From a virus, in the IMG/VR virus record IMGVR_UViG_3300028920_000057, positions 1 through 64,000 of that record: DNA of 64,000 bases; one strand, 5' to 3'. The notes under the pieces were generated by a model. That model had not been told where the DNA came from and did no database searches. It was given only the letters and a program-made list of their open reading frames with translations. How positions within the stretch are numbered: the stretch's first letter is position 1; each line of letters begins with the position of its first letter. Of the stretch, positions 38,001 through 56,760 are shown piece by piece. The position numbers and the translations under genes are program-made.

Positions 38001-41000
38001 CATCAACAGAAGAATACCCCGCACGAATTTGAATCCTTACTCCCGGCTTCAATCTAAAGGAAACGATATCTCCAATAGCGGTTTCGGATAATTCTCCAGA
38101 TTCTATCACCCGCCCTTTTTGGCCAAGCCTGTACTTGCCTTTGGAAACTAGGGTTGTCGTAACCTCTTCTCCTTCAATAACGTCTCTTGGATCTATCTTT
38201 AATTTGCGATAATCTGGCTGATTCGTTAAAACGCCAGAGAAGTTAGTCAGTTCAACCGTGGCCCCAGAAACAGATTCTTTCTCGTGCATAACTGCTACAG
38301 AGATGATTGAATCATAATTATAAAGCTTGGACCAGTTTTGGAATACAGCCTGATTTTCCTGCAGGAAGTATAATTGAACAGTAGGAAAAGCCTTGCGTAT
38401 ATCGTATACACGATTACTTTTATTCATCTGTCTTAGACGAACTATGTCTGGCGTATATGTGCTGTTAAACACATCTACTAAATTTCTTCCTTTGTCCTTT
38501 TTAGGGTTAATAATTTTCTCTACTTCTTTTTGTCCTTTGTCTTTATCTTCTTTAGACTTAATTCCGATACTATGGTTTTGTAAATCGGGATCTTCCTTTA
38601 TTAAATTGCGAACTTCCTTTTGCCTTTTCTTTCTATATTCCGCTATTGTCTCTGCAGATTTAACAGCTTGCTTTTTAGTTATCTTGTCTACCTTAATAGA
38701 TCTTTCCTTATTAGCATCTCTCTTTGTGCTTATAAAAATGCCATGTTGCGGGATTTCTTTTGCATCATGCCTTGAGTTTTCGTAGTTCTCCCGAAAAAGT
38801 TGCACTGGCATAACCGGCTTATTATGATTGACTTTTTTACTCGGCTTTATAGATATATCGGGCTTCTGTTTCCCCGCCACGCCATACGGGACATAGTATT
38901 GCCAGCCCGGTTCAACAAGATTGTTGCCACTACGTGCTACCCCCTCTTTGTTTCTAACACCAAATTTGTTTATAGGAGGCATAACTCCAAGCTGTGCATA
39001 TGTAGGTAAATTCTCAATCTCTGTAAAGATATTCTTACGATTAATGCGGGGTATTTCCCCAAATTCTTCTAGAGAAGAGGCAAGCGCTTCGCTGGCTGCA
39101 GTTATATTGTCAAGCCTTTTCTGAGCCCTGGTTCTTTTATCTCCTGTAAAAACCTTATTGTTCGCAAGCTCATCATTGAGAACCTCTACTCTCTTATCTA
39201 TATTGTTGATTGAACTTTTGATATTCCGTATAATGTCATCTCTATTTTTATGGATGAGGCTAATAAAGGCTGCAGATTCATCTCCCAACCTTAAAACAGA
39301 ACGCAGTTTATTTGATTCGGATGTTAATATAGAATCTCCAATCCTTAACGAAGCAGTATATAACGCCTGTGCTTCAGTCAGCATATTCAGAACATTAACT
39401 CCTGGATGCCCCAATTGGCCATAAACATCGTTATAAGTCGGAAGATTAAGATCTGCATGAGCAGTTTGACGCAACTTGACTTTCTTATACAGCTCTTGGA
39501 TAATAGGATCGTCCGGGGCTGTTACGGCAAATATCGCAGATAAAAGCTCTTTATATGCATCTATCCTCAACGCGCTTTCGATCATAGTACGCACGGCCTT
39601 CTGCACATTTGCGTCTTCCCTATTCTTATACAGTAAACCAGAAAGCTCATAAATACAATATGCGAGGAAATTACCAGAGGTGAAGCGCTGGCGAGATCTT
39701 GCCTGCTTAATTTGTGCGGCTCGGAATAGAGATCCGAAGACTCTTGTGACTAACCATCCTGTCGGAAACGATACGTCTTCTTCATTATAAAACGCTATGC
39801 GATCATTAATGAACAGCGACTCCAATCCTTCTGTTCGATATCTTCCCATAAGCCCCATCTGTTTACGAGATATGTTCGGATTTAGATCGGTTTTCTTAAT
39901 AAGGTCATTTAAAGAATCTTGAGTAAGAGAAATGAAGTTGATACCTTGGGCAACCCACAAAGAACCTTTTTTTTCTATAATTCTGAATATAGTAGCATAA
40001 CCATGAGGGTCTACGCTAAACCATTTCTTTGCATTGGAAGGGACAGAACTCGGTGAGACCTGAATAATCCCGGCGAATTGCATCGCCCTCATATATGCAT
40101 TCCATGCAACACGATCTTCATTCGATGAAAAAACATTGAATTCATTAATTATCTTGAATATAGGACAGTTCTCTTTAATAGCAAATTTATACGGATATCT
40201 TCTTCGATTAGTGTCGGTTAAACTTGGATCATCCAAATTGTCAAACTTGGCCAGAATATCATGCCCTTTACCCACTGCGACATTAGTACTCTTCTTATAT
40301 GCTCTTTCAAAGAACGGAGTATATGCAATTTTATCTGGTACGTTCCTATTGGCTATCAGAAACTCATCGTCTTCATCCGGGTTTGTATATTGCAATAGAA
40401 TAGGAATTTCTTTAATCTTGTCTGCGTCTTCTGCTTCTGTGAAGAATTTGTTGGGGCCTATCAACATACGCCATATACGAGTAGACACTGCCGTATGTTG
40501 TATTTTCCTATTAAACAAAACCTCCATTAGAGTATCTACTATATCATCTTGTTCCTGTTCGCTTGCCTCAAATACATTGGGTAGTGCAACCAAATCAAGA
40601 TTTTCATTATGAGAATCCATATAACCAGATTCTATCATGTCAAATGTAACAAGAAACCATCCTGGACTACCTTGCTTGTCTGCTATTTTGATAGACTGCA
40701 AAATAAATTGTTTGTTCCCAAAGATATTCGTAACGGGACTTATAACCTGGACCTTTGTAGGAAATATTTCATGAAAGGTAGATCTTGCAACCTCTTGCAT
40801 AAGCTTGTCTACTTTACGAATCTCTGTTATTGAATCCAGATTGTTTGTACTTAAAGTGATAGATGCAAATGAGTTTCCCTTGCCCGCATATTGACAAGTT
40901 GGTATCTCGGACGCTTGCAGAGGTATTGTTTGTATATTGTTTGCTATGCTATAATTAATTGATTCGACATGTACGTTATATATGTTATCGAGATTTGTGT

Positions 41001-43464
41001 CGTTGCCCCTTGAATAAGGATACATTTTCAGCTGTATATTTTGTGTTGTTTTAGTATAAGAAAGGTTTTCTATATCCTTTTGTGTCAGATAAGCAAGGAT
41101 CGGATAGGTATACGAGAATATGAGAGGCGCGTCCTTTTCTCCCAAGGCATTGTATGGTGCAATCCTCTCTCTGATGTTCGCAGATTCATCTAAATACGTT
41201 TTGTCTATCCAATCTGTTACAACGGGAGTTCTGGCTAAATCTGATTCATATATATCATATTGTTTGTTAAGACCCGCAACTCCATAGCCCTCCTGAAATG
41301 CTCCCTCTATGGTTGCGATATACCCAAAGTTCGGAGCATACGGCATATAGTTGAAGAAAGAGAATCTCATTGTGGCATGTAAAGCTTCGGGGGCATTGGG
41401 AACTGTAGATATACTTAATCCCTTAAATACCATCGGGACCCAGTTATCTATAAACTTTTTAGCAAGAACTTCAGTATGAGCTTTTGAAGTATATTTGAAT
41501 GAATCCTGAAAATCAGCTTCATCCTTACGATCCTTTTCTGTCCTGTAAGATGCGAGGATGCTACGAATCTTTTCGAATTGTTGATCGTCATGAAATCCCT
41601 TGGGGCTTGAAAGTCCTATTGTGGTTTCAATCGTTTCTAATCTACGCTTCATCTCTGCGAGAGTGACAGCGGATGCATGTACTGACTGAGAAGGGACGGC
41701 GTCTATTCCTCGTACTACAGGAGACCACGAATCAGAACCTCCAAAATCGTTGAACTCAATAATGTTACGCCCTTTTGGGATCGTACTGAATGGGGCATAT
41801 ATATAAATTGTATCATGGGGTTCTGTCCCGAACTTGGTAAAATCACTTGGACCCATCATGGCATTGAATTCATGTGCATATCCTGTCGTTTTACTTCTCG
41901 TAAGAGTATCAAAAGAAGCAAAACTGCTTGCAGATATATGTCGGGTCATAAAATAAAAGTGCTTGTTTACCATCTCATTAAAGCTTGCAGGCCTTACAAT
42001 CCTTAACTTTATAGTAAATATGTCGTCCTGATTTGCTATGCGGAATTTGTTTTCCAATTCGTAATACGGATACTGATTGGCTAACGCAGGATTGTGAGAA
42101 GTTTTACCTGCCCATCCCGCTAGACTTGCAGCATCCATTTTGTAGATTTCAAATGCCGACGTCTTTTTGATAGATCTAAATGCATTAGGGGGTAGAACAA
42201 GATTGTCATCTCCTTGAGGGGTCGTTAACGCAACGCCGGTTTTGGGGTTAAAACCATTTGCATAAATATCGGGAAGAGCTTTGGCTGAGTTCCAAACACC
42301 CGTTCCTGAAGCACTTGACGTTTTACCCGCTTCCAGATAAGGTTTATCTTTAATCCCCGCATTACCTGCGTTTGCAAGAGACATGGGAAACGCGAGGCCT
42401 TGCTGTGCCAATACTGCGTTTTGATTCTTTCCGTTAGCATATATCTCTGTCAAGGTTCGACCATATACTCCTTCGTCTCCCTTTTTAAGAGTGACAGCAT
42501 CGTAGGGATCCCAGAAGTTTTTAGCCTGTATAGCATGGGTTTCCTCATAGGTAGTCGCACTCCTGTCGTACCATTCCTGTCCTGGCAAATTGTCGTGAGC
42601 AGTTTCGTAACAATCAATACCTACGATCCTTAGTTCTTCTCGGTTAGGAAGCCGGATGCTGTCTCCGTCTTTTATATCTGTTCCCGCAGCTTTGAGACTT
42701 ATCCCCTCTATTGCTGTCAAGCCTTTTCGAGACGCATCAAGTACCGTATCCGATATCCCATCACCATAAGATCCAATATCGTTGACGGCACATTTAACAA
42801 ACTGATCTACAAGCTTATCAACGGTAGGAGCTTCGTTTGGGCAATGCTTACCTGATAAGAAATTATATTTGTCTATAGCGATTTTATAGTATCTTTTGAC
42901 TTCACTTATAACTTGTCTTGCGGCATATACGGGGTCCTTATCAATAAGCTCGTCTATGTATTGCCTTCCTGTCTTATCGACAGTCTTAGTAATAACTTCG
43001 AGAACCGCTTGTAAACAAATATCTCTTGTTGCGGCATATACAAATTCTGGATAGAACAATTTGTCAACAATAGTCGATGTTAATAACAGGCCTGTCTGCC
43101 CCCTATTGACACCCAGGGCTTCCTTCCTTGTCTTTTCATATTGATCTTGTTCTGCCTGAAGTTGTGCGAGTTGTTCTTTGTTAAATAATGATTCAATATA
43201 GATAGATGCGAGAAGATCGCTTTGAACATTAATAAATGGCATAGAATTATGTAGAGCAATAAGCGGCCTGAGTTTTGTGTTGATATCCCTTTCGTTAGGA
43301 AACACTACGCTGAATTGAATCTCAAACGCAGAAGATCCAGAAGGAATGGCCTGTGGCATTCCTCCCCGTATAGCCGGAATGATTGCATTCTTTTTAATAT
43401 CCGCAATTACCAGTGAATCTGGATCGACCGTAAGCTCTACATGCCCTATTCTTATATTTGCCAT
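35059..43464 (-). CDS. Giant baseplate hub protein: Dit-like N-terminus, SNase (thermonuclease) domain, gp27/late-control-D-like hub, C-terminal hydrophobic helices
   Basis: 2801 aa. SNase: DGDS...LRIVGIDCYE...YGRTL...N..LAQQGLA. Hub: IQIRAGYS......IFTGQVAEV and GNVTTLGKPEVNPYDIVTLED......FEVKRVVHLY....GFTTTITP. TM-like: WWGVGAIAVLASPGLFTLYGLGFAMIAAGA. Confidence 0.8.
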   Translation of the reverse strand: MANIRIGHVELTVDPDSLVIADIKKNAIIPAIRGGMPQAIPSGSSAFEIQFSVVFPNERDINTKLRPLIALHNSMPFINVQSDLLASIYIESLFNKEQLAQLQAEQDQYEKTRKEALGVNRGQTGLLLTSTIVDKLFYPEFVYAATRDICLQAVLEVITKTVDKTGRQYIDELIDKDPVYAARQVISEVKRYYKIAIDKYNFLSGKHCPNEAPTVDKLVDQFVKCAVNDIGSYGDGISDTVLDASRKGLTAIEGISLKAAGTDIKDGDSIRLPNREELRIVGIDCYETAHDNLPGQEWYDRSATTYEETHAIQAKNFWDPYDAVTLKKGDEGVYGRTLTEIYANGKNQNAVLAQQGLAFPMSLANAGNAGIKDKPYLEAGKTSSASGTGVWNSAKALPDIYANGFNPKTGVALTTPQGDDNLVLPPNAFRSIKKTSAFEIYKMDAASLAGWAGKTSHNPALANQYPYYELENKFRIANQDDIFTIKLRIVRPASFNEMVNKHFYFMTRHISASSFASFDTLTRSKTTGYAHEFNAMMGPSDFTKFGTEPHDTIYIYAPFSTIPKGRNIIEFNDFGGSDSWSPVVRGIDAVPSQSVHASAVTLAEMKRRLETIETTIGLSSPKGFHDDQQFEKIRSILASYRTEKDRKDEADFQDSFKYTSKAHTEVLAKKFIDNWVPMVFKGLSISTVPNAPEALHATMRFSFFNYMPYAPNFGYIATIEGAFQEGYGVAGLNKQYDIYESDLARTPVVTDWIDKTYLDESANIRERIAPYNALGEKDAPLIFSYTYPILAYLTQKDIENLSYTKTTQNIQLKMYPYSRGNDTNLDNIYNVHVESINYSIANNIQTIPLQASEIPTCQYAGKGNSFASITLSTNNLDSITEIRKVDKLMQEVARSTFHEIFPTKVQVISPVTNIFGNKQFILQSIKIADKQGSPGWFLVTFDMIESGYMDSHNENLDLVALPNVFEASEQEQDDIVDTLMEVLFNRKIQHTAVSTRIWRMLIGPNKFFTEAEDADKIKEIPILLQYTNPDEDDEFLIANRNVPDKIAYTPFFERAYKKSTNVAVGKGHDILAKFDNLDDPSLTDTNRRRYPYKFAIKENCPIFKIINEFNVFSSNEDRVAWNAYMRAMQFAGIIQVSPSSVPSNAKKWFSVDPHGYATIFRIIEKKGSLWVAQGINFISLTQDSLNDLIKKTDLNPNISRKQMGLMGRYRTEGLESLFINDRIAFYNEEDVSFPTGWLVTRVFGSLFRAAQIKQARSRQRFTSGNFLAYCIYELSGLLYKNREDANVQKAVRTMIESALRIDAYKELLSAIFAVTAPDDPIIQELYKKVKLRQTAHADLNLPTYNDVYGQLGHPGVNVLNMLTEAQALYTASLRIGDSILTSESNKLRSVLRLGDESAAFISLIHKNRDDIIRNIKSSINNIDKRVEVLNDELANNKVFTGDKRTRAQKRLDNITAASEALASSLEEFGEIPRINRKNIFTEIENLPTYAQLGVMPPINKFGVRNKEGVARSGNNLVEPGWQYYVPYGVAGKQKPDISIKPSKKVNHNKPVMPVQLFRENYENSRHDAKEIPQHGIFISTKRDANKERSIKVDKITKKQAVKSAETIAEYRKKRQKEVRNLIKEDPDLQNHSIGIKSKEDKDKGQKEVEKIINPKKDKGRNLVDVFNSTYTPDIVRLRQMNKSNRVYDIRKAFPTVQLYFLQENQAVFQNWSKLYNYDSIISVAVMHEKESVSGATVELTNFSGVLTNQPDYRKLKIDPRDVIEGEEVTTTLVSKGKYRLGQKGRVIESGELSETAIGDIVSFRLKPGVRIQIRAGYSSVDDENPIIFTGQVAEVQPGKIIRLVAQGYDYQLMRHLEESWTGAFNAFPTIITDMLHYAEHLGKWEPYQYSANWTTADAHEKSKSKSPDYVTAKGWFRAEEWLGMNDTCNDNLYNLPNHGTSPNLLNPFNLVQGSKWYCNGPILDNIYSMRRYIPGYAIAIKPYDERATLYFGPKDGVYICTSNVTQDMVMYNRLNNIQYNPSESNIIARDTYYYPGRGLPAFDGKPEDNDISGTKTEIKFAYTTREKIARSNDLVYNGATDLSPIDISRCFLRLWRMFARGDLISFKTRYVHTISDDEYGDYPSYLPGGFLEYSDIRNTDEIITVLKNTGVHKVFNDVFYREAAISADMKEIRNSNLVELINVDLKDVDRESEYGQTIFTALDKLQKHKNIWNADYLEALRAFVKLKKPSSGNWIDIPNSEATGVQIISSVDYNDFVQSIQERNLPFSSALINFLSKPENVKIPGGRFNYTAEEIGVNISKVLKVTAGTGFLVSQIFESLISKVSTLPHVEKLVPAGLDFPILYFAFLATDKIEYVGYISLRSLIVGLGRGGIKAKLQETAKKFYAFSFLSEQVGYDDSDPMASQPIYAPRKIALGDDFIKTYLSVLARSATKIRNKNMPTRGEQMSVGIDKSVLRIPPNRKPFRDTHIITDMDIISDDIIASKAHMANSVTLWTPNTGSAAASPESSLGAGDMVRHVVAFSPLLQDDIPVTAFDRNAAESAWFEAKVAQVGHGYLADYLREMYQGNVTTLGKPEVNPYDIVTLEDSVRDLRGNFEVKRVVHLYNNQTGFTTTITPHLISFANEDMESQRVIEQSVAELAWWGVGAIAVLASPGLFTLYGLGFAMIAAGATISATQYASAKARGGTTSSFLGIPFPTISAVGHTSTAFGWAGIDSKGLSRRNPCRIHPMRYKGEPLVAGLDGWEKNDWTNQQADDILKRDFKLGFSNFWLSLRRGTVRFIKRTEETARAIEEAREQITTNL

Positions 43465-46400
43465 TAGAATCTTCCTGTATTCCTTTGATGATGACTATAC
43501 ATAAAGTTAATATCGTTTGTCATATTGTCGTTGACGTTAACGCTTCCTGTCATGCCTGCCGTGTTCATCATATTTACTACGCCAGGAACATCCGACGAGT
43601 AGCCATTAGCCACCATTCTGCTTCCTATTGCGCTCTGCTGATGCAGATAAGCGGGAGGAGCGGTTATGGCTCGCTGGGTCACTGAGGGATCTACTTCTTG
43701 GACGGGAGTTGGAGGCAGTAGTTCTCCTGTGTCTCCAAACATTCCTGCCATAGCAACCCCTCCAGCAAAAGCAACCAGTCCTGCAATAGCCCCCCGGCCT
43801 TCAGGGATTAGAGACCTAGATAGGATTGTGTTGATCAATTTACCTTCTTTTGCCTTACCGGCAGCTCTTGTTGTTGCCTCTAGAATCTTCTCTTGAGCAT
43901 CTTTAGACGCTCTTCCCGACTCAACAGCCTTCTTCATAGAATCTCTGAACGCACTACGAGCCATATCGGGATCGGCCACTCCCACTCCTACGGCGGCCTG
44001 AACCGCATGCAATAGAGGAATACCTGCTTCTGGAGCTAAGTCGTCAAGCTTATGCTTAGCCAAATATTCTTGGGTTCTGTAGAATAATTCCGATACATAC
44101 TCAGCACTTTCGCCTTTGGCCTGTTTGCTTGTAAGAACTCGCATGGTTTTAGCAAGAAGATCGGCACCAGATTCTATTTCTTTTAACTTGCCAGGAGTGT
44201 CTGCAGTTCTCTTTGCCAACACCTCTCTCAGTATATCGGCCATACCTCCAAAACGCTCGTCGTCCAGAAGGTACATATGTTCTTTACCTTTTGAGACCTT
44301 TTCGGTTAATGACAAGAAAGCTTCGTTTGGCAAAGCCTGGTCTCCAATATCGAGCATAAACTTACCTTTATGCTCACTAAGAAGTTTTCCTAAATGAGTA
44401 TTGACTCCTGCTAATTTAATGTCTTCATCAGTAATTCGACGCCCCAAAGAAGCTTTAAAGCTATCAATAAAATCTGTACGCTCTTGAGCTCCTAGAGTAT
44501 GTCCTCTTTCCATCTTTTGCAGCAAAGCATACATACCCTTGGCACGCAAAGCGTTGTTTATAGCTTTGGTGTCCTTGAACTCACGAATCCTTGCCTCACT
44601 AAGCGTAAAGCTTAGAGCGTCATACAGACCGGGTAGCAATTCCTTCTTTTTTATACCGGTTTCAGTAACCCATCCGGCCGCTTCTCCGAAGAGAGCTCCT
44701 TGCTCCAGCGCTTCTCCGCTAACTGCGGCTAGGACTCTGGCTGATAAGTTGGACACCTTTCCGGTTTCCAGCCCATACTCCAGCTGTCCTTTAATAATGC
44801 GCTCCCACTTATTATCTAAAGCGCCGAACTGTCTTCTATATGCCTGTTTGATTTTATGTAGTTGAGCATCTACTTTGGTCTTTGCCTTAATATTCTCTGG
44901 CCGCATTGGTTCGCCAGACTGTCTCATCTGCGCTCGAATCCTGTCTTCTTCAGCACTAACTCTATTTATGATTCTGGCCAGCTCATCTCTTTCAACATCG
45001 GCGCTCAGTTCTCTTACTGCTTTCAATGTCTGATAGCCTGTTGCATAATACTGAAGTTCTCCCAGCATCTCTTGCTGAGTGGCCTGAAACCCCTTGTCTA
45101 CCAACCTTCTCATCGCGTTAGAAGCTGTGCGGCCTGTTGGGAGAAATGTCAAAGAGCCCATATCAAAGTCGAAGTCCCCTTTTGCCAGCTCGATAAGTAG
45201 TCCGCCTACAGCCGCCTTGCCCCTAGCTACTTGTGGATCCGATATAAGTCGTACTACCTGTTGGTTGGTTGTGCTTAGATCGGGCCACCTGCGATAGATA
45301 CCAAAGGCTTTGTCGGTATCTTTCATGCCGGTACCACGCATGAACTCCTTCATGTCGTCAGGATTAATAAAGACGGTTGCCAAGTCTTCTGCAATTTGCC
45401 TCGCGCCCTTACTGCTCTTAAGCAGCTGTCGTAAATCTCCAGTATATTGTCCTGTTCTAAATTCATGAGCGATTTTATTAGCCAGCCTAAAAGCTCGAGT
45501 TCCCTTTTTGTGAACCGCTCCTATCTGCATAGGATGAACTATCGCGCCTTCCTCTTCAATCCAGAATGCCTTGGCGATTGATCCTCCTTTACCTCGCATG
45601 GCGTTTCCCATGGTGGATTTGAATTCGTTTTCAATAGTCTCAGTAAGAACCTGGGCATGGGCGATTCTCTCATCAAGAGACAAAGACTTGTCGGCCAGGC
45701 TTTCTGCAAACTCGACTGCCGCATTATATATCTTAGCTCTTGTCTTTAGAGCTGGCATACCAAAAGCTTTCTCATCAAGATTTCTCATAAGCTCTTCGTT
45801 GCTCGCAAAACCTATTCCTCTTTCAAACACCTGCTTTAATATCATCGCCCGTCGACCTGTCCAGAATTCGCTTCGGGTCATGATTGTGTCAAGAAACTCA
45901 TCAGTGAAATCAGCTCTATTTGAGAACTTCATTCTAAAGCCCATTGTTGCTGCATCTGTATCTTTAGGACGTCTGTGCCCTAATCTTTTGGAGGCGTCTT
46001 TGAACAACTCTCTCAGTGTTTCTGGAGAATCTTGATCTAAGGGATTTGACTTGACCTCGAAGAATTTAGATAACATGCGCGCCCCTCGCATCGTTTCATC
46101 CGAGGCCGCACCGACATCTATGTCTATAACTCTCCCCGCCTTTCTCATCACGTCTAAGTAGTCTCCCTGGAAGAACGGTAGCGCAGTATCAACCTGCATC
46201 ATTGCACCACGTAGATACTTAGCGTTTGACCCTTTAATAATAGCCTCTCTAAGCTGGCTTTGGCGATAAACATATGCGGCCATACCACCTTCGCTGCCAA
46301 AAGCTCTCCCGGTAATCATAAGCTGATCTCGAAAGGTGGTTTTCATTGGACTAAAGGTTCCCATTGTAGCCTGTTCGCTCATCTCTGTCTGCCATAAATT

Positions 46401-49037
46401 AAATGCAGTCAGCAATTCTCGTTTTACTTTCCTGGGTATGTTTCTTTGGCGAGCCATTCTTAATATAGCCCTCTCGGGAGATTTGCCTTTATACGTCTCT
46501 AAGAATTGTTCTGCCGTTTTAGGAAATTCACCTTTAAGTTTATCTCCTCCGAAATGCCTCCCGTACAACTCAACAAAAGCATCTCGGCCTGTCTTGTATC
46601 TTCCTCGGACCTTTAATTTTCTAGTCTGAGTTTGAGCAACAGAACGAGCATGTATCCGAGCATCTCTTCGGGGAGTACTTGCGCGATACAAAGGAGCGCC
46701 TCCAACTCCGCCAGCCTGCTCGGCAGTAGCTCTTGTCTTAGTCAATACAATGCCTTCTGCTTCGTTTATCAGCTTTTCGTCTACCGCATGAACTGCTGCG
46801 ACGGGAATCCTTCTCCTCCCCTTTATATCTCTTTGAGCATAGAAACCTTCTGGATCACCATAGATTTCTTCGAAAAAGCCTACATTACCTTTCAACTTTT
46901 CTTTGGGGCCTACTCTGTTCTGTTCAGCAGTAGCCTTGATTTCATCAATGACGACTGCGGGAGACTCTGTCAAGTCTTCACCATAGGTCCATGTCGCCCT
47001 AACTTCCTCAGACAAAGATCCCTGTGTATGCTTTAGTGAAACAAGTCCAGTATGAAGGGCTCGAATTTCTTTTGCTACATACTCTTCTGTTTCACCTGCT
47101 ACTTGTCTGGTCTCAATAATCTGAGCTAACAAAGCCCCTTTCTTGGCAAAGACGTCTCGATCAAGAGCTTCTTTTCTTAGAACTCTAAGGGTCTGCGTCT
47201 GAGGATCGATACCCCAACGATTAAAAGTCTCTGTTGTCTTTGTTAGTATTGAAGGATCTAAATAAGGGTTGACCTGAAACATTCCTGACGCTTTATTGGC
47301 TACAGTCGGAGACCCAATAGCTCCTAAAGAAAACTCTGGTACCAACAGGGGGAAATCAGCAGCTTGAGCTCGAGCCCATTTATTGTACTGACTCGTATAC
47401 TCTGCTACAGACATCTTCCCAAAAACAATGTCGCGACCCATCTCTTTGAAGCCCCAAGCGCGTCCTTGTTCTGTAATTGTTTTTCCTTTTCTTGCCAAGC
47501 CAACTAAATAGTCAACAAACTCCTCTTGATAAGCACCGTGTACAAAGGCAACACCAGCTTGCATGTGAGGAGTCGCTTTGTAACCAACGTTACGAGACAA
47601 TGCGCTAACCAATTTTCCGTACAAACCTCCCGCTTTCTTTGGAGAGGCTACAGATATATCTATTCCCATCTTTCTGGCCGCACGCAGTTTAAGTCCTGCT
47701 TGACCCGTTAGATTCCATGATGTCGTGTTAGCCAGGGCTTTGGCTGGGCCTTCTCGCTGATAAGTCCTCTCTGATAGACCGAAAAACTCATGAATGGACA
47801 TCTGATTCTCAAATAGAATAGAAGATGTAGTTCCGCTAAACAGTTTTTGCATCCTGCTACCAACCGCTCGATTCCACATATCTATCGCTTCACTAGTCGC
47901 TCCGACCATAGTCTTATCTTTTAAAATATAACCACTCTTGCTTTTTTGTAAAACCTGACCATATGTACTGATTTCATCTCTTGTAAACGCAGGCAGTATC
48001 CGATGGATGTCTGAAGTCGGGTCAGACATCTGCTCGCCAAGCACATTAAATGCCTTCTCTGCGTTTAGAACAACCTCGCCTTTTTTGTTCACGTCTTGAA
48101 GATCTTCGAACACGATTCGAGCGGAATGCAAGACCTGTTCTATAGCTCCCAGCTTATCGCTGACTTGTCTCTGTCGTGGTCTGGATGGCTCGTAGAACTT
48201 CTGAAATCTATCTACTAGCGATCCTTTTAATCGCTTAAACTTCCCTGCGGCTGAAGAAGCATCTCTCCATTCATCAGAATTGATCGCCTTAAATACCTGA
48301 GCCAAGACGGCTTCATTGTATGGCATCAGCACAGCACTTTTACCAGCCTGGGTGGCAGACAATCCAAACCCCTCAAGGCCTTCGGTAGCCACAAAGCCCG
48401 CAATCGGAGCCACGTTCATACCCCTACCATAAGAGCCGAAAACTCCTGTAATAAACGGTAAGCGAGTTTCGCCAATAGTTCTATCTCCTATAGAGGCTCG
48501 TAGCGACATAGAGAAAGTAGCGCCAGCTAAAGCATCTTCTTTCCCAGATCTTGCTAAGGTATTAATGGCTCTTTTGCTTAGGCTTGAATCAAGAACAAAC
48601 TCAAATTGTACACCAGTGTCTTTTTGTATCTGGGCAAATTGTTTCTGCACATTCTCCAGCTGTCTTACGTAGTTCTTGGCATGTTCAGACCCCGTTCTGA
48701 GTCCTTTGACATCTATGAAATCGATAAGATCTTTATTTTGATCGACCGTATATTCTGCTATCTGCTGTTGGATCCTGGCAATTTCTTTAACGTCTGTAAT
48801 AGAGACTCCTCCGACGGGTCTGGCTTCTATATCTGGACGCAACTCGATGTCTCGAGTATATTTACTGGGTTGCCTGACAACACTAGTTACACCTTTGATA
48901 GGCCTGGACGCGGCTCGAGATGCAAGCATAGACTTCTGCTCCCGACCAATGGCTTTACCAGTGATCAGAGTGTCGGCCTCCTTTGCTGCTTGGACCATCT
49001 CTTCAAACATATCTATCTTAAAACGCGCTTTGGCCAT
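43464..49037 (-). CDS. Tape-measure-locus protein with a two-barrel (DPBB) RNA polymerase-like catalytic domain; candidate virion RNAP
   Basis: 1857 aa, basic. VFINPDD...GIYRRWPDL...VVRL......GKAAVG......KGDFDFDMGSL parallels the beta-prime R-x-P-x-L ... ADFDGD barrel. C-terminal Gly-rich hydrophobic helix. Confidence 0.65.
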   Translation of the reverse strand: MAKARFKIDMFEEMVQAAKEADTLITGKAIGREQKSMLASRAASRPIKGVTSVVRQPSKYTRDIELRPDIEARPVGGVSITDVKEIARIQQQIAEYTVDQNKDLIDFIDVKGLRTGSEHAKNYVRQLENVQKQFAQIQKDTGVQFEFVLDSSLSKRAINTLARSGKEDALAGATFSMSLRASIGDRTIGETRLPFITGVFGSYGRGMNVAPIAGFVATEGLEGFGLSATQAGKSAVLMPYNEAVLAQVFKAINSDEWRDASSAAGKFKRLKGSLVDRFQKFYEPSRPRQRQVSDKLGAIEQVLHSARIVFEDLQDVNKKGEVVLNAEKAFNVLGEQMSDPTSDIHRILPAFTRDEISTYGQVLQKSKSGYILKDKTMVGATSEAIDMWNRAVGSRMQKLFSGTTSSILFENQMSIHEFFGLSERTYQREGPAKALANTTSWNLTGQAGLKLRAARKMGIDISVASPKKAGGLYGKLVSALSRNVGYKATPHMQAGVAFVHGAYQEEFVDYLVGLARKGKTITEQGRAWGFKEMGRDIVFGKMSVAEYTSQYNKWARAQAADFPLLVPEFSLGAIGSPTVANKASGMFQVNPYLDPSILTKTTETFNRWGIDPQTQTLRVLRKEALDRDVFAKKGALLAQIIETRQVAGETEEYVAKEIRALHTGLVSLKHTQGSLSEEVRATWTYGEDLTESPAVVIDEIKATAEQNRVGPKEKLKGNVGFFEEIYGDPEGFYAQRDIKGRRRIPVAAVHAVDEKLINEAEGIVLTKTRATAEQAGGVGGAPLYRASTPRRDARIHARSVAQTQTRKLKVRGRYKTGRDAFVELYGRHFGGDKLKGEFPKTAEQFLETYKGKSPERAILRMARQRNIPRKVKRELLTAFNLWQTEMSEQATMGTFSPMKTTFRDQLMITGRAFGSEGGMAAYVYRQSQLREAIIKGSNAKYLRGAMMQVDTALPFFQGDYLDVMRKAGRVIDIDVGAASDETMRGARMLSKFFEVKSNPLDQDSPETLRELFKDASKRLGHRRPKDTDAATMGFRMKFSNRADFTDEFLDTIMTRSEFWTGRRAMILKQVFERGIGFASNEELMRNLDEKAFGMPALKTRAKIYNAAVEFAESLADKSLSLDERIAHAQVLTETIENEFKSTMGNAMRGKGGSIAKAFWIEEEGAIVHPMQIGAVHKKGTRAFRLANKIAHEFRTGQYTGDLRQLLKSSKGARQIAEDLATVFINPDDMKEFMRGTGMKDTDKAFGIYRRWPDLSTTNQQVVRLISDPQVARGKAAVGGLLIELAKGDFDFDMGSLTFLPTGRTASNAMRRLVDKGFQATQQEMLGELQYYATGYQTLKAVRELSADVERDELARIINRVSAEEDRIRAQMRQSGEPMRPENIKAKTKVDAQLHKIKQAYRRQFGALDNKWERIIKGQLEYGLETGKVSNLSARVLAAVSGEALEQGALFGEAAGWVTETGIKKKELLPGLYDALSFTLSEARIREFKDTKAINNALRAKGMYALLQKMERGHTLGAQERTDFIDSFKASLGRRITDEDIKLAGVNTHLGKLLSEHKGKFMLDIGDQALPNEAFLSLTEKVSKGKEHMYLLDDERFGGMADILREVLAKRTADTPGKLKEIESGADLLAKTMRVLTSKQAKGESAEYVSELFYRTQEYLAKHKLDDLAPEAGIPLLHAVQAAVGVGVADPDMARSAFRDSMKKAVESGRASKDAQEKILEATTRAAGKAKEGKLINTILSRSLIPEGRGAIAGLVAFAGGVAMAGMFGDTGELLPPTPVQEVDPSVTQRAITAPPAYLHQQSAIGSRMVANGYSSDVPGVVNMMNTAGMTGSVNVNDNMTNDINFMYSHHQRNTGRF

Positions 49038-52000
49038 TAAAATCTCCCTGAGTACCTATACTTATAAGCGTCAAAAGTTGACCTGCGATCATACATTATA
49101 TCAATATTGGCGTGATTGTCACCTACGGCTCCCACGGTTGGCATGGAGCTTATTTGCATATTGTTAATAGGCATGGAATATGATGCTGCAATCATTTCGT
49201 CACCAATCGTAGCCATATTTGGCAATGTGATTAGGTTTTTTATGTAAGGTCGCGATCTATCTAAGTCTCGCTCGTCGGCTCCCCAGAATCCATAATCATG
49301 GACATCTCTGCCGTCGAACTGGACAGACGCCAGTTTAATATCATCAAGAGAGACATCTGGTCTCCATCCGGCCCAGCCTGGCCCAGGCATAGGAGTTCCC
49401 GCAACAGACGCCTGCGATTGCTGAAGAGCCTGCATATTTGCTCCCAGACTGCCACCCCTGGCTTGCCATATCTTTTGAAGCATTGGAGCCATATAATCTG
49501 GAACTTCCCTTAGAATGTCCTCGTGATACTCAGAGGGAGCGTGAGAGAAGTCCAGAAGAAAACGGCGATCCGCCTTCGGTAAAGCGAGATATGCATTTTC
49601 TATAAATTCTTGATTTGCACTTCCGTAATCCAGTCCTCTCATGGTTCGACCATGTATTTTGTCCAAACGAGCCACAACATCATTCCTGCCCGCTCTCTGA
49701 GCTATATCAGATAGAACTTCGACCTTTTGAGCCTTCATGCTGTCAAAATATGTTTCTATTTCACGACGGCGCTGTTCTTTCTCCCAGTGGTCTCCGGTGT
49801 TAAGTAGATTAGAAACGACGCCTGCTCCCATACCTCCTATTCCTAAAACCATTGCGCTATACGGGTCTCGACCCAAAACAGCAAAAGCAGCACCAGAAGT
49901 AGCTGAATCAATCACATCTCGAGAAGCCATCTGTCTCATATATGGAATCAGCATGGAATCTATCGGCTGAGTCCAATCGTAGAAATCATCACCCACAGTT
50001 ATTCTGTCTCTATAGAGGTCTAGAGGAGTCTGTCTCTGATAGAGTTTAGAAAAAGCATAAGGAATATGAGGTAAGGATGGCTTGAGTCCCATCGTCCAGC
50101 TGGTCGAGGGATTTACAGAGAAGGCCGCAGAATGGTCTGTCTTAATTAATGTGCTGGGCTGCCCTTGGCCTCCCATAAATGGAGATCCCGGAAATACCTG
50201 AAAGCCACCTGAAGCGTTGTATCCGTTATGAAAGTTAGATACCATTGGGTTTATTTCATCGCGAGTTCTCATTCCAGGTAGAAAACGGCGAAGCAACTCT
50301 GTTGAACCTATAGCTCCTCCCAGATCCATATCATAATAAGCCCTACTTGTAGAATAAAGGTCTGTCGCATTTTGCCAACGCCGACCTTCAGCAAAAAAGT
50401 CCGACGTACCCGTTAGCTGCTTCTTAGCAAAGCCAATAATAAACCCGCGCATCCCCCAAAAGGTCTTAATTCGATCAAGAGTCTGTCCTGCAGCATCTAA
50501 AAGGCTGGGAACTCTAGGTACTGTAAAACCAGGATTGATAGTCTCATATCCAAGCTCGCTCGCTATTTGCTGAAGTTCGTCTTTTTTACCTCTCTTCTGA
50601 ATAAAGTCTCGAATAGCATGACCATGCATTATCTTTGTAGGTTTTAGTCCCTCACCTATAGTCGCCCCAAGTAGAGGACCAATTATAGGTACGTCCGTAA
50701 AGAGCTGGCCCGTAAGAGGGTACGGCTGATTATAATAATTTCTGCGCTCTGTATAGTACGGATCGGTTCCCGGAAGTCCTGTCCAAGAGGTTAGAGGAGT
50801 TCTCAAAGGAAGGGTTAAGGGAGATACATTGAGAAAATATGCGCCTTTGCCCCCATAGATATCATATGGCTGATCTTCCATCTGCCTGGCAATGTAATGC
50901 TTACGCATTCTAGTTATATCACCACCAGCATAATCTTGAGGGCCAAGACCCCACCACCTGTTCTCTCGTATGGGAACCAGCTTCTCTCCCATATACTCAG
51001 CCCGCAGATCTCTCCAATCCTTCATTGTAGCAGAGGTTCCTAAAGCCAAACCTCCTACAACGGCACCAACCATCCCACCTCGAGTTTTAGCTGTAGCTTG
51101 CCCGATATCGCTTAGAATTCCTCTGTTTGCGGCGCGCTTTGAAGCCAGCCTCTTACCTATGGCGCCTCCAACAGCAATGCCGGCAAGGCCTCTAAACGCA
51201 TATCCAAGGAATGAATCTGGCAAACCTGGGAAAACAGCGTCTACGCCTTCGGCTACTGGCGTCATAGTATAGTTGGTAATTGCTTGCTGGCCGACCTTAA
51301 GAGTCCCGTAGGTGGCTAATGCAGATTTCTTCAGTCCTACATCACCAAATGGATTCGCTTTTTCTACCAGATAATCAAAGAAGTGAAGACCTTCCCATGC
51401 GAGATATGCCCCAACTCCTGTTAACGCTGCCGCTCCCAAGAATTGCATTGGCCCCATAGGCTTAACACCTAAGCCGGTAAGAGCTTCGATTAACCTTACT
51501 GTGGTTTGAGATCCTTGTGCAGCCTTAATCTTCAGGCTGTTCATAAAGCCGCCTTCGTAGGCCATGTACTGAGCTGAAACAGGACTACTCGGCTTCAGTC
51601 CTCGGAACGCATTTTGTCTACGCTGCTTAGGGCTCGGGTCTACCTTTCCAAAAGGACTGGCTTCACGCCCAGACTGCACTCTCCTGAGCCTGCGCAGTCT
51701 TTCCATACTAATTCTACCCTTCTGAGTCCGGGCAAGAATTAGCTCTTCTTCCGTTAAGTGCGCGTATTGGCTTGTCTCAATCCCAAGCTTATTCGCAATT
51801 CTTTCGAATAAGTCTAGCTGGTCTTCTCCTTTTACAAAGCCTCGCTTGGGATGCCAGACTATTCCTTCCGCACCAGAGTATTTTGGATGTGGCGTGGTTT
51901 TCCCGAAGCGTTTGAACCAGTCAAATATTTTACCGTATACAGTCTTAGGTTCTACTGCGTGTCTTGAGGAATAGACATCTAATCCCTTGCTGGTCAGCCA

Positions 52001-53155
52001 TTCGTCAACAGAGGCGGTAAGAGGAGTAGCTCCGGTGTCTGCATTATATACAAAATTTAGTCTACGCCCTGTCGCTCCCTCGATCAACTCATTTAAAGAG
52101 GGTCCTCCTCCTATTTTTTTATTAAAGATAGCTTCGAGTATTGGGTGGTCATAGAACCCTTTTTCAATAAGACCTTTTCTAGTCCTGCCGGTTGCAGCGT
52201 CTTTATATCCTCTTAAAGGCTTTGTGGAAGCATACCGCTCGTCCATAGAAGCGATGCCGCGTGCAGCAGAAGAATCTGTAGCATATATCTTATAGCCACT
52301 GCCGAGCTTCTGTAGCTCACCCTCTCTAATAGAGAACAGTTCGTCGTCAATAATAAAGCCTTGCTCTGGCTCAAACCCGAGCATCGCCATATTCTTCGCA
52401 CTAAGACGTGCAGTAAGAGGTCCTTCTCCTGAAAAGATAAAATCTAAAGGATTGCCAACAAAGGGATAGCGGAGTCTTTCAGTTAAAGCCTTTTGAATAC
52501 TTCCCGCAGTAAAGGCTTCCGTTATAACTCCTTCTTTTCTATTAAGAAATACTCCTCGGTCTATGATCTCTTCGCCAGTCAGCAGAGGATCTGCTTTGCG
52601 ACGCATTTGCTTCATTGCTATAAGATCTAGCTCGTCCATCTCCCTGCCAAAGATGGTAACGGTCTCCCTGCCGCCTCCGATAGGCTTGGCTGCTCCTGCT
52701 CCGACTCTCTCGTATTCCGATACAACGTGCTCTACGTTTAGGTACTCATATCCCTCTGGCAAGTTCGTATGTAAGCCCTCGGGTCTGGAGAATCTTCTCT
52801 TGATGGCTTTTTTGAGATTCCTCTGAAGCTGTTGTCTTACAGAGTCTGGAGTAGACATAAATTGTGTGTATTGCCTACTTATCTCTGGTAGTAAGCCCCG
52901 AGAAAATGTCCTAGTAGAACTAAGAGAGGAAAGAGATTCACGAAAGTTGTGACCCAGTCGGCCCAGCTTCATAGACAGAGGCTCTAACATATACCTTGCA
53001 TCGGCAAATGCTCCTGCCGTAGACTGTCTTAGAGCTCTGTAAGCTCCAATACCCAGGCCTACCCCAATCAGAGTGGCTCCAATCTTTAATGCCGCACCCA
53101 CCCCATCGGGCTGTTGAGGTCTTTCAGGATATGCTGTTGGATCATAAGGAGGCAT
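49037..53155 (-). CDS. Tape-measure-like / DNA-delivery membrane protein
   Basis: 1372 aa directly after the tail chaperones; several Gly/Ala-rich hydrophobic helices (GAALKIGATLIGVGLGIGAY, FLGAAALTGVGAYLAW, GGMVGAVVGGLALG, AMVLGIGGMGAGVV). Confidence 0.65.
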   Translation of the reverse strand: MPPYDPTAYPERPQQPDGVGAALKIGATLIGVGLGIGAYRALRQSTAGAFADARYMLEPLSMKLGRLGHNFRESLSSLSSTRTFSRGLLPEISRQYTQFMSTPDSVRQQLQRNLKKAIKRRFSRPEGLHTNLPEGYEYLNVEHVVSEYERVGAGAAKPIGGGRETVTIFGREMDELDLIAMKQMRRKADPLLTGEEIIDRGVFLNRKEGVITEAFTAGSIQKALTERLRYPFVGNPLDFIFSGEGPLTARLSAKNMAMLGFEPEQGFIIDDELFSIREGELQKLGSGYKIYATDSSAARGIASMDERYASTKPLRGYKDAATGRTRKGLIEKGFYDHPILEAIFNKKIGGGPSLNELIEGATGRRLNFVYNADTGATPLTASVDEWLTSKGLDVYSSRHAVEPKTVYGKIFDWFKRFGKTTPHPKYSGAEGIVWHPKRGFVKGEDQLDLFERIANKLGIETSQYAHLTEEELILARTQKGRISMERLRRLRRVQSGREASPFGKVDPSPKQRRQNAFRGLKPSSPVSAQYMAYEGGFMNSLKIKAAQGSQTTVRLIEALTGLGVKPMGPMQFLGAAALTGVGAYLAWEGLHFFDYLVEKANPFGDVGLKKSALATYGTLKVGQQAITNYTMTPVAEGVDAVFPGLPDSFLGYAFRGLAGIAVGGAIGKRLASKRAANRGILSDIGQATAKTRGGMVGAVVGGLALGTSATMKDWRDLRAEYMGEKLVPIRENRWWGLGPQDYAGGDITRMRKHYIARQMEDQPYDIYGGKGAYFLNVSPLTLPLRTPLTSWTGLPGTDPYYTERRNYYNQPYPLTGQLFTDVPIIGPLLGATIGEGLKPTKIMHGHAIRDFIQKRGKKDELQQIASELGYETINPGFTVPRVPSLLDAAGQTLDRIKTFWGMRGFIIGFAKKQLTGTSDFFAEGRRWQNATDLYSTSRAYYDMDLGGAIGSTELLRRFLPGMRTRDEINPMVSNFHNGYNASGGFQVFPGSPFMGGQGQPSTLIKTDHSAAFSVNPSTSWTMGLKPSLPHIPYAFSKLYQRQTPLDLYRDRITVGDDFYDWTQPIDSMLIPYMRQMASRDVIDSATSGAAFAVLGRDPYSAMVLGIGGMGAGVVSNLLNTGDHWEKEQRRREIETYFDSMKAQKVEVLSDIAQRAGRNDVVARLDKIHGRTMRGLDYGSANQEFIENAYLALPKADRRFLLDFSHAPSEYHEDILREVPDYMAPMLQKIWQARGGSLGANMQALQQSQASVAGTPMPGPGWAGWRPDVSLDDIKLASVQFDGRDVHDYGFWGADERDLDRSRPYIKNLITLPNMATIGDEMIAASYSMPINNMQISSMPTVGAVGDNHANIDIMYDRRSTFDAYKYRYSGRF

Positions 53156-53166
53156 AGATATTCTCC

Positions 53167-53808
53167 CTATTTAGTCTTCGAGGGATCGGCTGTCTTAATG
53201 TCAAAGGAGGCTTGTGACTCTCGGTTGATAAACTCTATACCAGAGATCAGCTCCATGATCTCAAAACAATTGAGATCATCAAGACTCGAAAGAGATAGGG
53301 CTGGCAGCCATTTACGTATAAACCAGTCCATACCCTTTTCAACGTCCCCTCTCTCGAGAGTCTCGCGAGCCATATTCTTAACTTCGCAGATAGCCTCGAT
53401 AGAGTGGAAGCCACTGCTTTCAAGAAGGATTTGTTTAATTTTACTGTCTATCCCCGCCTTGAGATTATTTGAAAACTCCGGGTCGTCAAATATTTCTCTG
53501 GTAGGATAGAAGATGTTGTCGCTGAATACATCGTAGATATCATATGCCGGGCCGACCATTCTTTCTACTGTCTCATAGATTTTAAATTGTCTTCTTGTTA
53601 GAGGACTGTAAATTAAATCTATATCATTGACCTTACAGTAAAAAACATAGCTATGTTTCTTTCTGGCTTCTACGATATATTTTGTGAGATAAGAAGGGAC
53701 AGTTCCATTGTTCGACTGTCCCATAATGTCGACTATAGAATGAGAGAGAGCGTCGTCAGTTGCGTCGCCCCCCGTCATGAATTCTTGTATCAAAGATTCT
53801 TGATTCAC
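53167..53808 (-). CDS. Tail assembly chaperone (longer paralogue)
   Basis: KKHSYVFY......LIYSPLTRRQF...IFYP......LKAGI...I...LLESSGF aligns with the upstream chaperone, plus an ~65-aa extension. Start (GTG 53808 or ATG ~53778) uncertain. Confidence 0.6.
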   Translation of the reverse strand: MNQESLIQEFMTGGDATDDALSHSIVDIMGQSNNGTVPSYLTKYIVEARKKHSYVFYCKVNDIDLIYSPLTRRQFKIYETVERMVGPAYDIYDVFSDNIFYPTREIFDDPEFSNNLKAGIDSKIKQILLESSGFHSIEAICEVKNMARETLERGDVEKGMDWFIRKWLPALSLSSLDDLNCFEIMELISGIEFINRESQASFDIKTADPSKTK

Positions 53809-53810
53809 GT

Positions 53811-54410
53811 CTACAGCTTAATAGGTTGAACATCCACATGACCAAAATCACTAGAACTTAGGATAGTGTTACATAACGTAGAGCTTGTACCAGCTCGCGT
53901 CCCTCGGCCACCGTCGCGGAGATCAAATGGCGTAAGTCTTGGAAATAGAGTGCACGAGCAGACAATCTTCTCTTCAATTTGCTCACGATTGATACCTTCT
54001 GTGTTCACGATCTTTCTATGCTCTGGCCTCATAATGGGGCGATAGATATATATACCGCTTGGCAGCTCTACAAAATAGATATCTTGATATTGCTCTTTCA
54101 GCTGCAGAATTAGCTCTGGAGGACAATCATCTGGCAGATAAGGTAAAAGCTCTAAGAGCCATTGGGGATACTCGATTCTACTGTCTTCTTGAGGTGCAAG
54201 AGGATCGATGGGTTCCTGTTGTTGCATCTGGGCTGAAGGTTGGGGAGTCTGAAGAAGAACATTCTCTCCCGATCCCATTTCTGAGGATAGTGCCTGCATA
54301 TCTGCATTAAGATCTGCTTTTCCGTGATCCGCAGTCAAATCAACCGGGGGTGCTTCCGGTACTACCGGAGTTTCGCTCTTCTGAGCTCTTTTTGGTGGGT
54401 TAAGTTTCAT
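53811..54410 (-). CDS. Tail assembly chaperone
   Basis: LKEQYQDIYFV......YIYRPIMRPEH......EEKIV..CTLFP........AGT.STL...IL..SDF; lies between the tube genes and the tape measure. Confidence 0.65.
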   Translation of the reverse strand: MKLNPPKRAQKSETPVVPEAPPVDLTADHGKADLNADMQALSSEMGSGENVLLQTPQPSAQMQQQEPIDPLAPQEDSRIEYPQWLLELLPYLPDDCPPELILQLKEQYQDIYFVELPSGIYIYRPIMRPEHRKIVNTEGINREQIEEKIVCSCTLFPRLTPFDLRDGGRGTRAGTSSTLCNTILSSSDFGHVDVQPIKL

Positions 54411-54422
54411 GCTGTGTCTCCC

Positions 54423-55424: not shown

Positions 55425-56046
55425 TGGTTATTTTCTCGTATAGCCCATTAACAGTATTCACGCCTATGCGTACGTCATTTATAAGCTGTGTCGCATCCAT
55501 TCCGAAGTCCAGATATTCTCTTGCAACATAGCTGTAGGTCTGTTCTGTGTATATATCATTTATAGATACGACAGTTCCGCTATCCATTAGGCTCACACCT
55601 ATCAGATATGCGGACGAAGTATCTACTCCGTACTCGTTAGATTGTGATAATTGAACATTAAACGGCAGGGTTCTATCGAACGATCTGAAGCCGCGAACAT
55701 CCAAATGTGCAGATTCAACATAGTTCTTAAAAAGATCCTGAATCTTATCTTTATGTATCTTTACAAAAACTATTGTTCCGCTGACAGTACGTGTTCCTTT
55801 TTTGTATGTCTTCGGAGAGTCGTATCCAATAGCTCTTACAGGAGCCAAATCTCTATGTGCAGAGATAGATATAGTCTGCAGATTTCCTATTGTATAGTAC
55901 GCACCGAGGACTGCATTCTCGCCATCAGCAGGGATTACATCTAGGGGGTTGACAGAAATTGAGGCAACAATGTCGGTACCGGAAAAGGAGTTGTAGTGGG
56001 CTGCTTTATTGATATTATTATCATCTGTAGTATTAACCGTCATCAC
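55417..56046 (-). CDS. Tail-tube-fold protein (second paralogue; possible tube initiator)
   Basis: YNSFSGTDIV...GNLQTISIS..R..APV..IG...P..Y..G.R..SGTIVF...LPFNV......NEYG...GV.L...G...SIND..TE.TYSYVARE aligns throughout with 56102..56749. Confidence 0.8.
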   Translation of the reverse strand: MMTVNTTDDNNINKAAHYNSFSGTDIVASISVNPLDVIPADGENAVLGAYYTIGNLQTISISAHRDLAPVRAIGYDSPKTYKKGTRTVSGTIVFVKIHKDKIQDLFKNYVESAHLDVRGFRSFDRTLPFNVQLSQSNEYGVDTSSAYLIGVSLMDSGTVVSINDIYTEQTYSYVAREYLDFGMDATQLINDVRIGVNTVNGLYEKITNE

Positions 56047-56058
56047 TACTCCCTAAGT

Positions 56059-56093
56059 AAAAAAAACAGCCGGCCTATAAGAGACCGGCTGTT
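56059..56093 (-). terminator. Rho-independent terminator after the sheath/tube genes
   Basis: Minus strand AACAGCCGGTCT-CTTAT-AGGCCGGCTG followed by a T-run, 9 nt after the tube stop. Confidence 0.85.
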
Positions 56094-56101
56094 CGTATCT
56101 G

Positions 56102-56749: not shown

Positions 56750-56760
56750 GGTTCACCTCC

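Follow-up and report, generated by a model that had tools for sequence, protein, structure and literature searches.

The metagenomic virus record IMGVR_UViG_3300028920_000057 (IMG/VR), the sole form in which this phage is known, encodes an 1857-residue protein, P0001, that lies at the tape-measure position of a contractile-tail module and carries an R-x-P motif followed by a DxDxD loop, as do the two-barrel RNA polymerases (RNAPs). The stretch that we analyzed, hereafter the window, is the first 64 kb of the 88,896-bp record, which is estimated to be ~46% complete. All large genes of the window are carried by its minus strand, and the features described below are on that strand and numbered by window position unless stated otherwise. 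The coding sequence of P0001 (43464..49037) is translated without interruption; its start overlaps the end of an upstream gene for a 1372-residue protein, and its stop overlaps the start of a downstream gene for a 2801-residue protein. The three giants are encoded by three translationally coupled genes in a row.

The R-x-P/DxDxD block and its conservation

In P0001, the sequence RRWPDL (residues 1249–1254) is followed by KGDFDFDM (residues 1286–1293). Within these segments, R-W-P-D-L at residues 1250–1254 (45276..45290) is a candidate for the R-x-P of a beta-prime-type barrel, and D-F-D-F-D at residues 1288–1292 (45162..45176) is a candidate Mg-binding triad. Both motifs lie exactly where an earlier reading of this DNA, hereafter the original prediction, had located them. 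That reading gave the distance from the Arg to the Asp loop as ~35 residues, a figure close to, but not the same as, the real ones, with 38 residues from R1250 and 36 from P1252 to the first Asp.

The family to which P0001 belongs is small. An exhaustive HMMER search of 1.84 billion representative proteins found three lineages only, namely P0001 itself, P0002 (1831 residues, 38–39% identity to P0001), and P0003 (1813 residues, 21–23% identity to P0001), which forms one lineage with P0004. P0002 sits on a metagenomic contig with the same gene order. Word-indexed homologue searches returned nothing beyond these lineages, and tblastn of P0001 and P0003 against 50,697 phage records gave no match. 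Scans of viral-contig and genome-contig collections revealed nothing, a metagenome scan gave the P0002 locus only, and queries of the ESM Atlas yielded no usable match.

Across the three lineages, the DxDxD motif occurs once per protein and in the same alignment column, and the Pro-to-Asp spacing is 36 in all three family members. Just 11% of columns are invariant in the three-way alignment (21–39% identity), and P1252, E1283, K1286, D1288, D1290, and D1292 are among them; conservation of the DxDxD in homologues, which the earlier reading had named as a check, is thereby borne out. The family consensus for the loop is K-[GS]-D-[FQ]-D-[FYM]-D, with F, Y, or M, not Gly, at position 4. The Asp and Lys residues alone are fixed in the loop, and a metal-binding triad would give such a pattern. 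The block that runs from R-x-P to DxDxD (residues 1245–1294; 45156..45305), a candidate for the second half of barrel A, ranks third in conservation among the non-overlapping 50-residue windows of P0001, behind residues 1753–1802 (the C-terminal hydrophobic/PPxYL block) and 1398–1447. The motif, its conservation, and its spacing are direct observations, and the motif is more than chance.

We compared this block with the R-x-P to DxDxD segment of 15 known or annotated two-barrel RNAPs: E. coli beta-prime, P23-45 gp96 and gp64, TSP4 gp64, gp66 of Cellulophaga phage phi14:2, six further proteins of crAss-like or Flavobacterium phages, and four YonO-like proteins. All 15 two-barrel polymerases, each an RNAP or annotated as one, have R-x-P and then DxDxD at 33–45 residues. 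The first Asp follows the Pro by 33 residues in beta-prime, by 36 in the Thermus phage trio (gp96, gp64, and TSP4 gp64), by 37 in the crAss-like proteins, and by 41–45 in the YonO-like proteins. Invariant Arg and Pro residues ~33–45 residues upstream of the triad are represented in Rpb1 by R446 and P448 (PMC2919709). At the level of sequence, P0001 has R1250-W-P1252 in that arrangement, and its spacing is that of P23-45 gp96 and gp64; the beta-prime-like order that had first drawn attention to the protein is therein confirmed. Position 4 of the loop is Gly in most RNAPs and I or V in the crAss-like enzymes, where crAss has DFDVD and phi14:2 gp66, correctly cited in the original prediction as a virion RNAP, has DFDID (bioRxiv 10.1101/2020.03.07.982082). 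The YonO-like protein of Bacillus phage BUCT082 (MZ969646.1 3293-5398) carries DFDYD, not DxDGD. A bulky fourth loop residue is therefore not restricted to crAss-like virion polymerases, and F, Y, or M at this position has precedent among active or annotated RNAPs in the I or V of the crAss-like enzymes and the Y of BUCT082.

Similarity beyond the motif itself was measured with R, P, and the three Asp residues masked. The flanking 51 positions were scored against a family-weighted BLOSUM profile of five families, with 30,000 random two-segment windows from the open reading frames (ORFs) of the phage itself as the null. P0001 gave z = 1.62 (p = 0.055), P0002 z = 2.05 (p = 0.024), and P0003 z = 1.91 (p = 0.031), three values that are not independent, and true RNAP members, left out by family, gave z = 1.72–5.45. 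The masked flanks of the P0001 family beat ~95–98% of random segments and stand at the weak end of the true members, like FpV4, BUCT082, and the YonO-like proteins. This weak similarity is again a direct observation, which we regard as supportive, not decisive. The best local hhalign match of the 1001-residue family profile to gp64 was the R-x-P strand (IYRRWPDLSTTNQQV versus IFNRRPDLPTGQSAV; P = 0.41, not significant), and in the same match FNRRPDLPTGQSAV of gp64 aligns where P0001 has YRRWPDLSTTNQQV. With the crAss and all-family block profiles, the top local match was the Asp motif, and in the crAss comparison it consisted of the six-residue motif alone (P = 0.16).

The tail module and the C terminus of P0001

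PHROG and BLAST comparisons revealed a contractile-tail module in the window. The only distant relatives of the phage in the phage database are the group of Bacillus phage 0305phi8-36, and gene-by-gene BLAST against that phage, whose gp numbers are used here, showed the tail module to be co-linear with gp139–gp151. The module order begins with the major capsid protein (62294-63688) and continues with the sheath (56761-58608; PHROG sheath match, E = 2e-42; blastp homology to gp139) and two tail-tube paralogues (56102-56749 and 55417-56046; blastp homology to gp140 and gp141). A 333-residue protein, placed by position after the tubes within the upstream tail module (53167..58608), and two genes at the chaperone position follow; the latter encode 199 and 213 residues (53811-54410 and 53167-53808), and the 199-residue product is homologous to the gp143/144 chaperones. 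Next come the three giants. The upstream 1372-residue protein (49037..53155) is a homologue of the virion protein gp145 (blastp E = 9e-19), and the downstream 2801-residue protein (35059..43464) is baseplate-hub-like, with a staphylococcal nuclease (SNase) domain and an endolysin-like region (homologue of the hub/endolysin gp147, blastp E = 2e-12; phrog_20474, E = 3e-38). Baseplate genes follow the giants, and a 150-residue protein and a 381-residue protein of the module are homologous to gp150 and the gpJ-like gp151, respectively.

P0001 is the sole member of this row without similarity to its positional counterpart, gp146, a hypothetical tape measure. It lies between the tail tube and assembly chaperones on one side and the baseplate hub on the other, in the slot that gp146 occupies in 0305phi8-36, and both gp145 and gp146 are virion proteins by mass spectrometry in the 0305phi8-36 record. 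This gene-for-gene synteny, a direct observation, puts P0001 at the tape-measure position, and the sheath and the two tube paralogues identify the phage as contractile; the original prediction was right on both counts.

Two side observations concern the neighbors. The SNase domain of the hub-like giant (PF00565, E = 6.5e-8, residues 278–392) is an unusual cargo for a baseplate hub. The tube paralogues (55417-56749) match PHROG 9206, which is labelled "major head protein," and the RefSeq product names of gp140 and gp141 likewise say major head protein, whereas their notes say tail tube; the label is a propagated mislabel.

Conservation within the P0001 family peaks in the C-terminal ~110 residues. 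They contain a Gly/Ala-rich hydrophobic segment at residues 1749–1768 (GAIAGLVAFAGGVAMAGMFG; 43734..43793), the only transmembrane-like segment, which holds the sole hydrophobic 19-mer of P0001 above 1.4 on the Kyte-Doolittle scale and falls in the most conserved block of the family (residues 1753–1802). Membrane anchoring by a C-terminal helix had been proposed from the outset; the segment is indeed present and is the only hydrophobic one, and it may serve as such an anchor. A similar hydrophobic segment is found in 0305phi8-36 gp145 (hhalign P = 0.008). The last 60 residues of P0001, which end in GRF (43467..43646), are similar to the C terminus of the upstream 1372-residue giant (49040-49220; blastp 33% identity, E = 0.006), and the GRF ending is invariant in the three homologues of the P0001 family. 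This shared C terminus suggests a common module for tail loading or ejection. Together with the locus, the C-terminal features fit a tape-measure or tail-lumen protein, a location that we infer. A C-terminal homology of P0001 to gp146 was also considered and was unsupported by hhalign.

Candidate second barrel, bridge element, and fold

The second barrel of two-barrel polymerases supplies two basic residues and one acidic residue to the active site (Rpb2 K979, K987, and D837). We scanned P0001 with a K-G block of five families, a mini-profile that recovers the true site at rank 1–5 in four single-chain RNAPs. Its top site was the invariant R943-G944, which lies in a conserved block (residues 927–976; 46110..46259) and precedes a hydrophobic run, as a tentative barrel-B K-G strand. 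K935 and K940 are close by, and the distance from R943-G944 to R-x-P is 307 residues, compared with 310 in gp66. A tentative barrel-B acidic residue is provided by the invariant R903-D904 (within residues 900–910; 46308..46340), with D904 39 residues before R943 (37 in gp64 and 39 in gp96). We propose a second barrel around D904 and R943-G944 as a tentative assignment, away from the sites named in the original prediction. K1150 and K1156 (GKGGSIAKAF) were also considered as barrel-B lysines and were dropped, as K1150 is Ser in P0003 and only 94 residues remain before R-x-P.

Two upstream elements of the original prediction lack statistical support. The segment AKKGALLAQI...KEIRALHTGLV (residues ~632–668), which had been likened to a sandwich-barrel-hybrid motif, is present within residues 625–668 (VFAKKGALLAQII...KEIRALHTGLVSL; 47034..47165), but this region has no Pfam match, and its best hhalign result, to E. 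coli beta-prime 1109-1165, was not significant (P = 0.084). The Lys of VVIDEIKAT (residues 696–704), offered as a beta-barrel lysine, is invariant (K701), but nothing links it to a barrel.

On the other side of the motif, the second most conserved block of P0001 (residues 1398–1447, WERIIKGQLEYGLETGKVSNLSARVLAAV...; 44697..44846) is found ~125 residues after the triad, roughly the offset of a bridge helix, and its assignment as a bridge element is speculative. Another conserved block, at residues 1466–1515, has a plausible offset for a bridge helix or trigger loop. AlphaFold2 models of residues 860–1560 and 1090–1320, built from a four-sequence alignment, had predicted local distance difference test (pLDDT) values of 40.7 and 40.6, with ~22–35 in the motif region. 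These low-confidence models are mostly helical, and fold searches on them were uninformative. AlphaFold and profile methods are blind here because the family has only three members.

A further protein lies beyond the window. P0005 is a 1044-residue orphan (record positions 82809-85943, plus strand) encoded on the opposite strand to the tail genes, probably in an early region. Its single homologue, P0006, is encoded by the contig that carries P0002, and the HHRFDTADFDDTAH block is fully conserved between the two. One pairwise BLAST match relates P0005 to E. coli RpoB 438-544 (32% identity, E = 5e-6). No Pfam model matches P0005, and its RpoB-like segment is poorly conserved in P0006. P0005 could be a second, very divergent polymerase-related protein. 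Between record positions 81439 and 86983 (plus strand) there are also six strong hairpins, each followed by an identical TTTTTTATTT(T) tract and then by A-ACGG, often with ACTAT. The TTTTTTATTT tract has 8 occurrences compared with 1.3 expected, and 0 of 200 shuffles reached 8. These hairpin-tract units have the look of intrinsic terminators that separate early genes and are joined to a conserved element on their downstream side.

Interpretation and comparison with known systems

We favor the reading that P0001 belongs to the virion, takes the tape-measure position, and contains a divergent catalytic module like that of two-barrel polymerases; we assign this reading a probability of about one half. 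A fuller version can be put forward only tentatively, and we give it somewhat less credence: P0001 might represent a new family of single-chain two-barrel RNAPs, residing in the tape-measure-position protein of a contractile jumbo phage, with a non-Gly loop (K-G-D-F-D-[FYM]-D), delivered through the tail tube, tethered to the membrane by its C terminus, and transcribing the first genes. In the favored reading, P0001 would be the virion protein at the tape-measure position of a 0305phi8-36-like jumbo myovirus, and its residues ~900–1500 would hold a nucleotide polymerase module of the single-chain two-barrel (double-psi beta-barrel) kind, in a highly divergent form. R1250 and P1252 together with D1288, D1290, and D1292 would make up the beta-prime-type half of the active site, where the catalytic Mg ions would be held, an upstream second barrel, tentatively near D904 and R943-G944, would supply basic residues, and the block at residues 1398–1447 may act as a bridge. 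Loading of P0001 into the tail would fall to the conserved C-terminal module, made up of the hydrophobic Gly-rich helix, PPxYL, and ...GRF, which may enter the host membrane once the sheath has contracted. The polymerase part would travel in together with the DNA and would not need the host RNA polymerase to transcribe the first genes, as has been shown for P23-45 gp96. We infer the fold and activity and, from the locus position and one hydrophobic segment, the packaging in the tail, the injection, and the membrane anchor.

A number of findings weigh against a polymerase. R1250 is replaced by Lys in P0003, being Arg in the other two lineages, and Lys occupies position −2 relative to the first Asp, where the known families compared have Gly or Asn. 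The masked similarity of the P0001 family is below that of most true members. Comparison by hhalign with E. coli RpoB and RpoC, gp96, gp64, and the family block profiles gave nothing significant, with all probabilities <1%. Nothing significant for P0001 came from Pfam and PHROGs, searched at E ≤ 10 with the whole protein and six short segments, or from PDB sequence and PDB profile searches, which returned coiled-coil noise only. PF00623 and PF05183 have no match in the phage record, whereas PF05183 finds the YonO-like gene of 0305phi8-36 at 1e-20, and a crude five-family barrel-A hidden Markov model run on the six-frame ORFs of the record did not rank the P0001 family first. A profile match to RNAP families is absent at E ≤ 10 for PF00623, PF05183, and the PDB RNAP chains, and the hhalign comparisons with RNAP families gave P ≥ 0.16. 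The placement of the second barrel is tentative: the z = 3.4 of R943-G944 is about the chance maximum of 1626 positions, and an acidic-block scan ranks D904 76th of 1630. The post-triad region is not significantly similar to known bridge helices: compared by Smith-Waterman with RNAPs already known, it gave no z above 2.9 and no bridge-helix match in co-linear order. The layout of the protein is also unlike that of P23-45 gp96, where the polymerase is N-terminal (the first ~1200 of 5002 residues, followed by ~3800 residues); in P0001 the motif is at residue 1288 of 1857, and ~350 residues are left after the putative module for measuring. Finally, gp146 of 0305phi8-36 has no DxDxD. As for the missing profile similarity, gp64, gp96, and gp66 are themselves described as resembling known RNAPs in sequence to a limited or extremely low degree (PMC10770324; bioRxiv 10.1101/2020.03.07.982082).

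Alternatively, P0001 may be a tape measure or an ejection protein of the tail lumen, unremarkable apart from its fast evolution; the acidic loop would then be a structural or metal (e.g. Ca/Mg) site or an interaction site, with a coincidental likeness to RNAPs. P0001 occupies the gp146 slot, every neighbor is homologous to its 0305phi8-36 counterpart, a C-terminal hydrophobic segment is typical of tape measures, and the C-terminal tail is common to the neighboring giant; the mainly helical low-confidence AlphaFold models and the absent RNAP profile evidence point the same way. By our own composition-based estimate, ~3 DxDxD motifs are expected in the ~21,000 residues of the window, with RxP 30–42 residues upstream in ~3%. 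Chance does not, however, account for a Pro and three Asp residues that are invariant at 21% identity, with a spacing of 36 and p ~0.02–0.05 beyond the motif. The loop is unlike the EF-hand DxDxDG, having neither the Gly of position 6 nor the Glu of position 12, none of the tape-measure families of Pfam or PHROGs matches P0001, and many invariant non-helical blocks over its full length suggest globular domains. We consider a plain tape measure unlikely, although it is the strongest of the alternatives.

The conserved triad, with invariant Lys and Glu nearby, could also belong to a virion-delivered Asp-triad two-metal enzyme that is not a DNA-dependent RNAP, such as another nucleotidyl transferase, a primase-like or DNA-polymerase-like two-barrel enzyme, of which archaeal PolD is an example, or a phosphodiesterase. 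Position −2, with its Lys, and the bulky residue in position 4 set P0001 apart from the compared RNAPs, and the two-barrel group includes the non-transcriptional PolD and QDE-1 (PMC10770324). We nevertheless judge such an enzyme improbable, given that R-x-P and DxDxD at 33–45 residues were present in all 15 of the two-barrel polymerases examined, RNAPs or annotated so, and that no similarity to another enzyme family was found. Least probable of all is a decayed relic of a tape-measure-fused polymerase, now structural only: the second barrel and bridge helix are not recognizable, Lys replaces the Arg in one lineage, and position 4 has a residue other than Gly, but invariance of three Asp, the Pro, and the flanking Lys and Glu at 21% identity, in one of the most conserved blocks of P0001, is not what one would expect of an inactive relic.

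If the polymerase reading is true, P0001 works like P23-45 gp96 and is not a member of that family, since its polymerase module would sit elsewhere in the chain, its phage has a contractile tail, and there is no detectable homology. P23-45 gp96 is a virion two-barrel RNAP fused to the tail tape measure, as the original prediction correctly stated, and has a paralogue, gp64; in the absence of profile similarity, gp96 was found by a DxDxD search of virion proteins (PMC10770324). P0001 resembles gp96 as a giant at the tape-measure locus, and both gp96 and gp64 in its R-x-P followed by DxDxD with a Pro-to-Asp spacing of 36, in the hydrophobic strand and then Pro after the triad, and in being undetectable by profiles and found by motif. 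In addition, NRRPDLPTGQSAV of gp64 resembles the YRRWPDLSTTNQQV of P0001. In contrast, P0001 has no significant sequence similarity to the P23-45 proteins, gp96 belongs to a non-contractile siphovirus whereas the P0001 phage has a sheath, and gp96 and gp64 have Gly both at position 4 and at position −2, where the P0001 family has F/Y/M and Lys. The 89-kb partial genome yielded no clear non-virion polymerase paralogue, P0005 being without similarity to the P0001 family.

The crAss-like enzyme phi14:2 gp66 (PDB 6VR4) is likewise a giant protein of the virion. Its DFDxD loop has a residue other than Gly in fourth place (I/V in this group), its Pro-to-Asp spacing is 37, ~310 residues lie between the barrel-B K/R-G strand and R-x-P (tentatively 307 in P0001), and most of its length is without a recognizable fold or family. 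It differs from P0001 in having no detectable homology beyond the motif and in being a podovirus head or cargo protein that is not at a tape-measure locus. 0305phi8-36 gp146 takes the same slot in a syntenic tail module and is a giant virion protein with a hydrophobic segment near its C terminus, but it has 2537 residues compared with 1857 in P0001 and shows no sequence similarity to it. That phage has instead a separate YonO-like RNAP, ORF099, the gene found by PF05183, a model that matches nothing in this record. The YonO-like RNAPs (SPbeta YonO, ORF099, and BUCT082) share R-x-P followed by DxDxD, and the DFDYD of BUCT082 is the loop of P0002, whereas their spacing is 41–45 and they are not at the tape-measure locus.

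To our knowledge, the only known tape-measure-fused RNAP is gp96 of P23-45, a long-tailed siphovirus. Were the polymerase reading of P0001 true, fusion of a cell-type polymerase to a tail-lumen protein would have arisen independently a second time, and bringing such a polymerase in through the tail would be a strategy that recurs. The two-barrel superfamily would gain a very divergent branch, with a bearing on the origin of these enzymes, and the mechanical question would arise of how a ~1000-residue module passes through a myovirus tube. Where profile methods and AlphaFold see nothing, enzymes of this kind can be picked up by screening for a motif together with its conservation.

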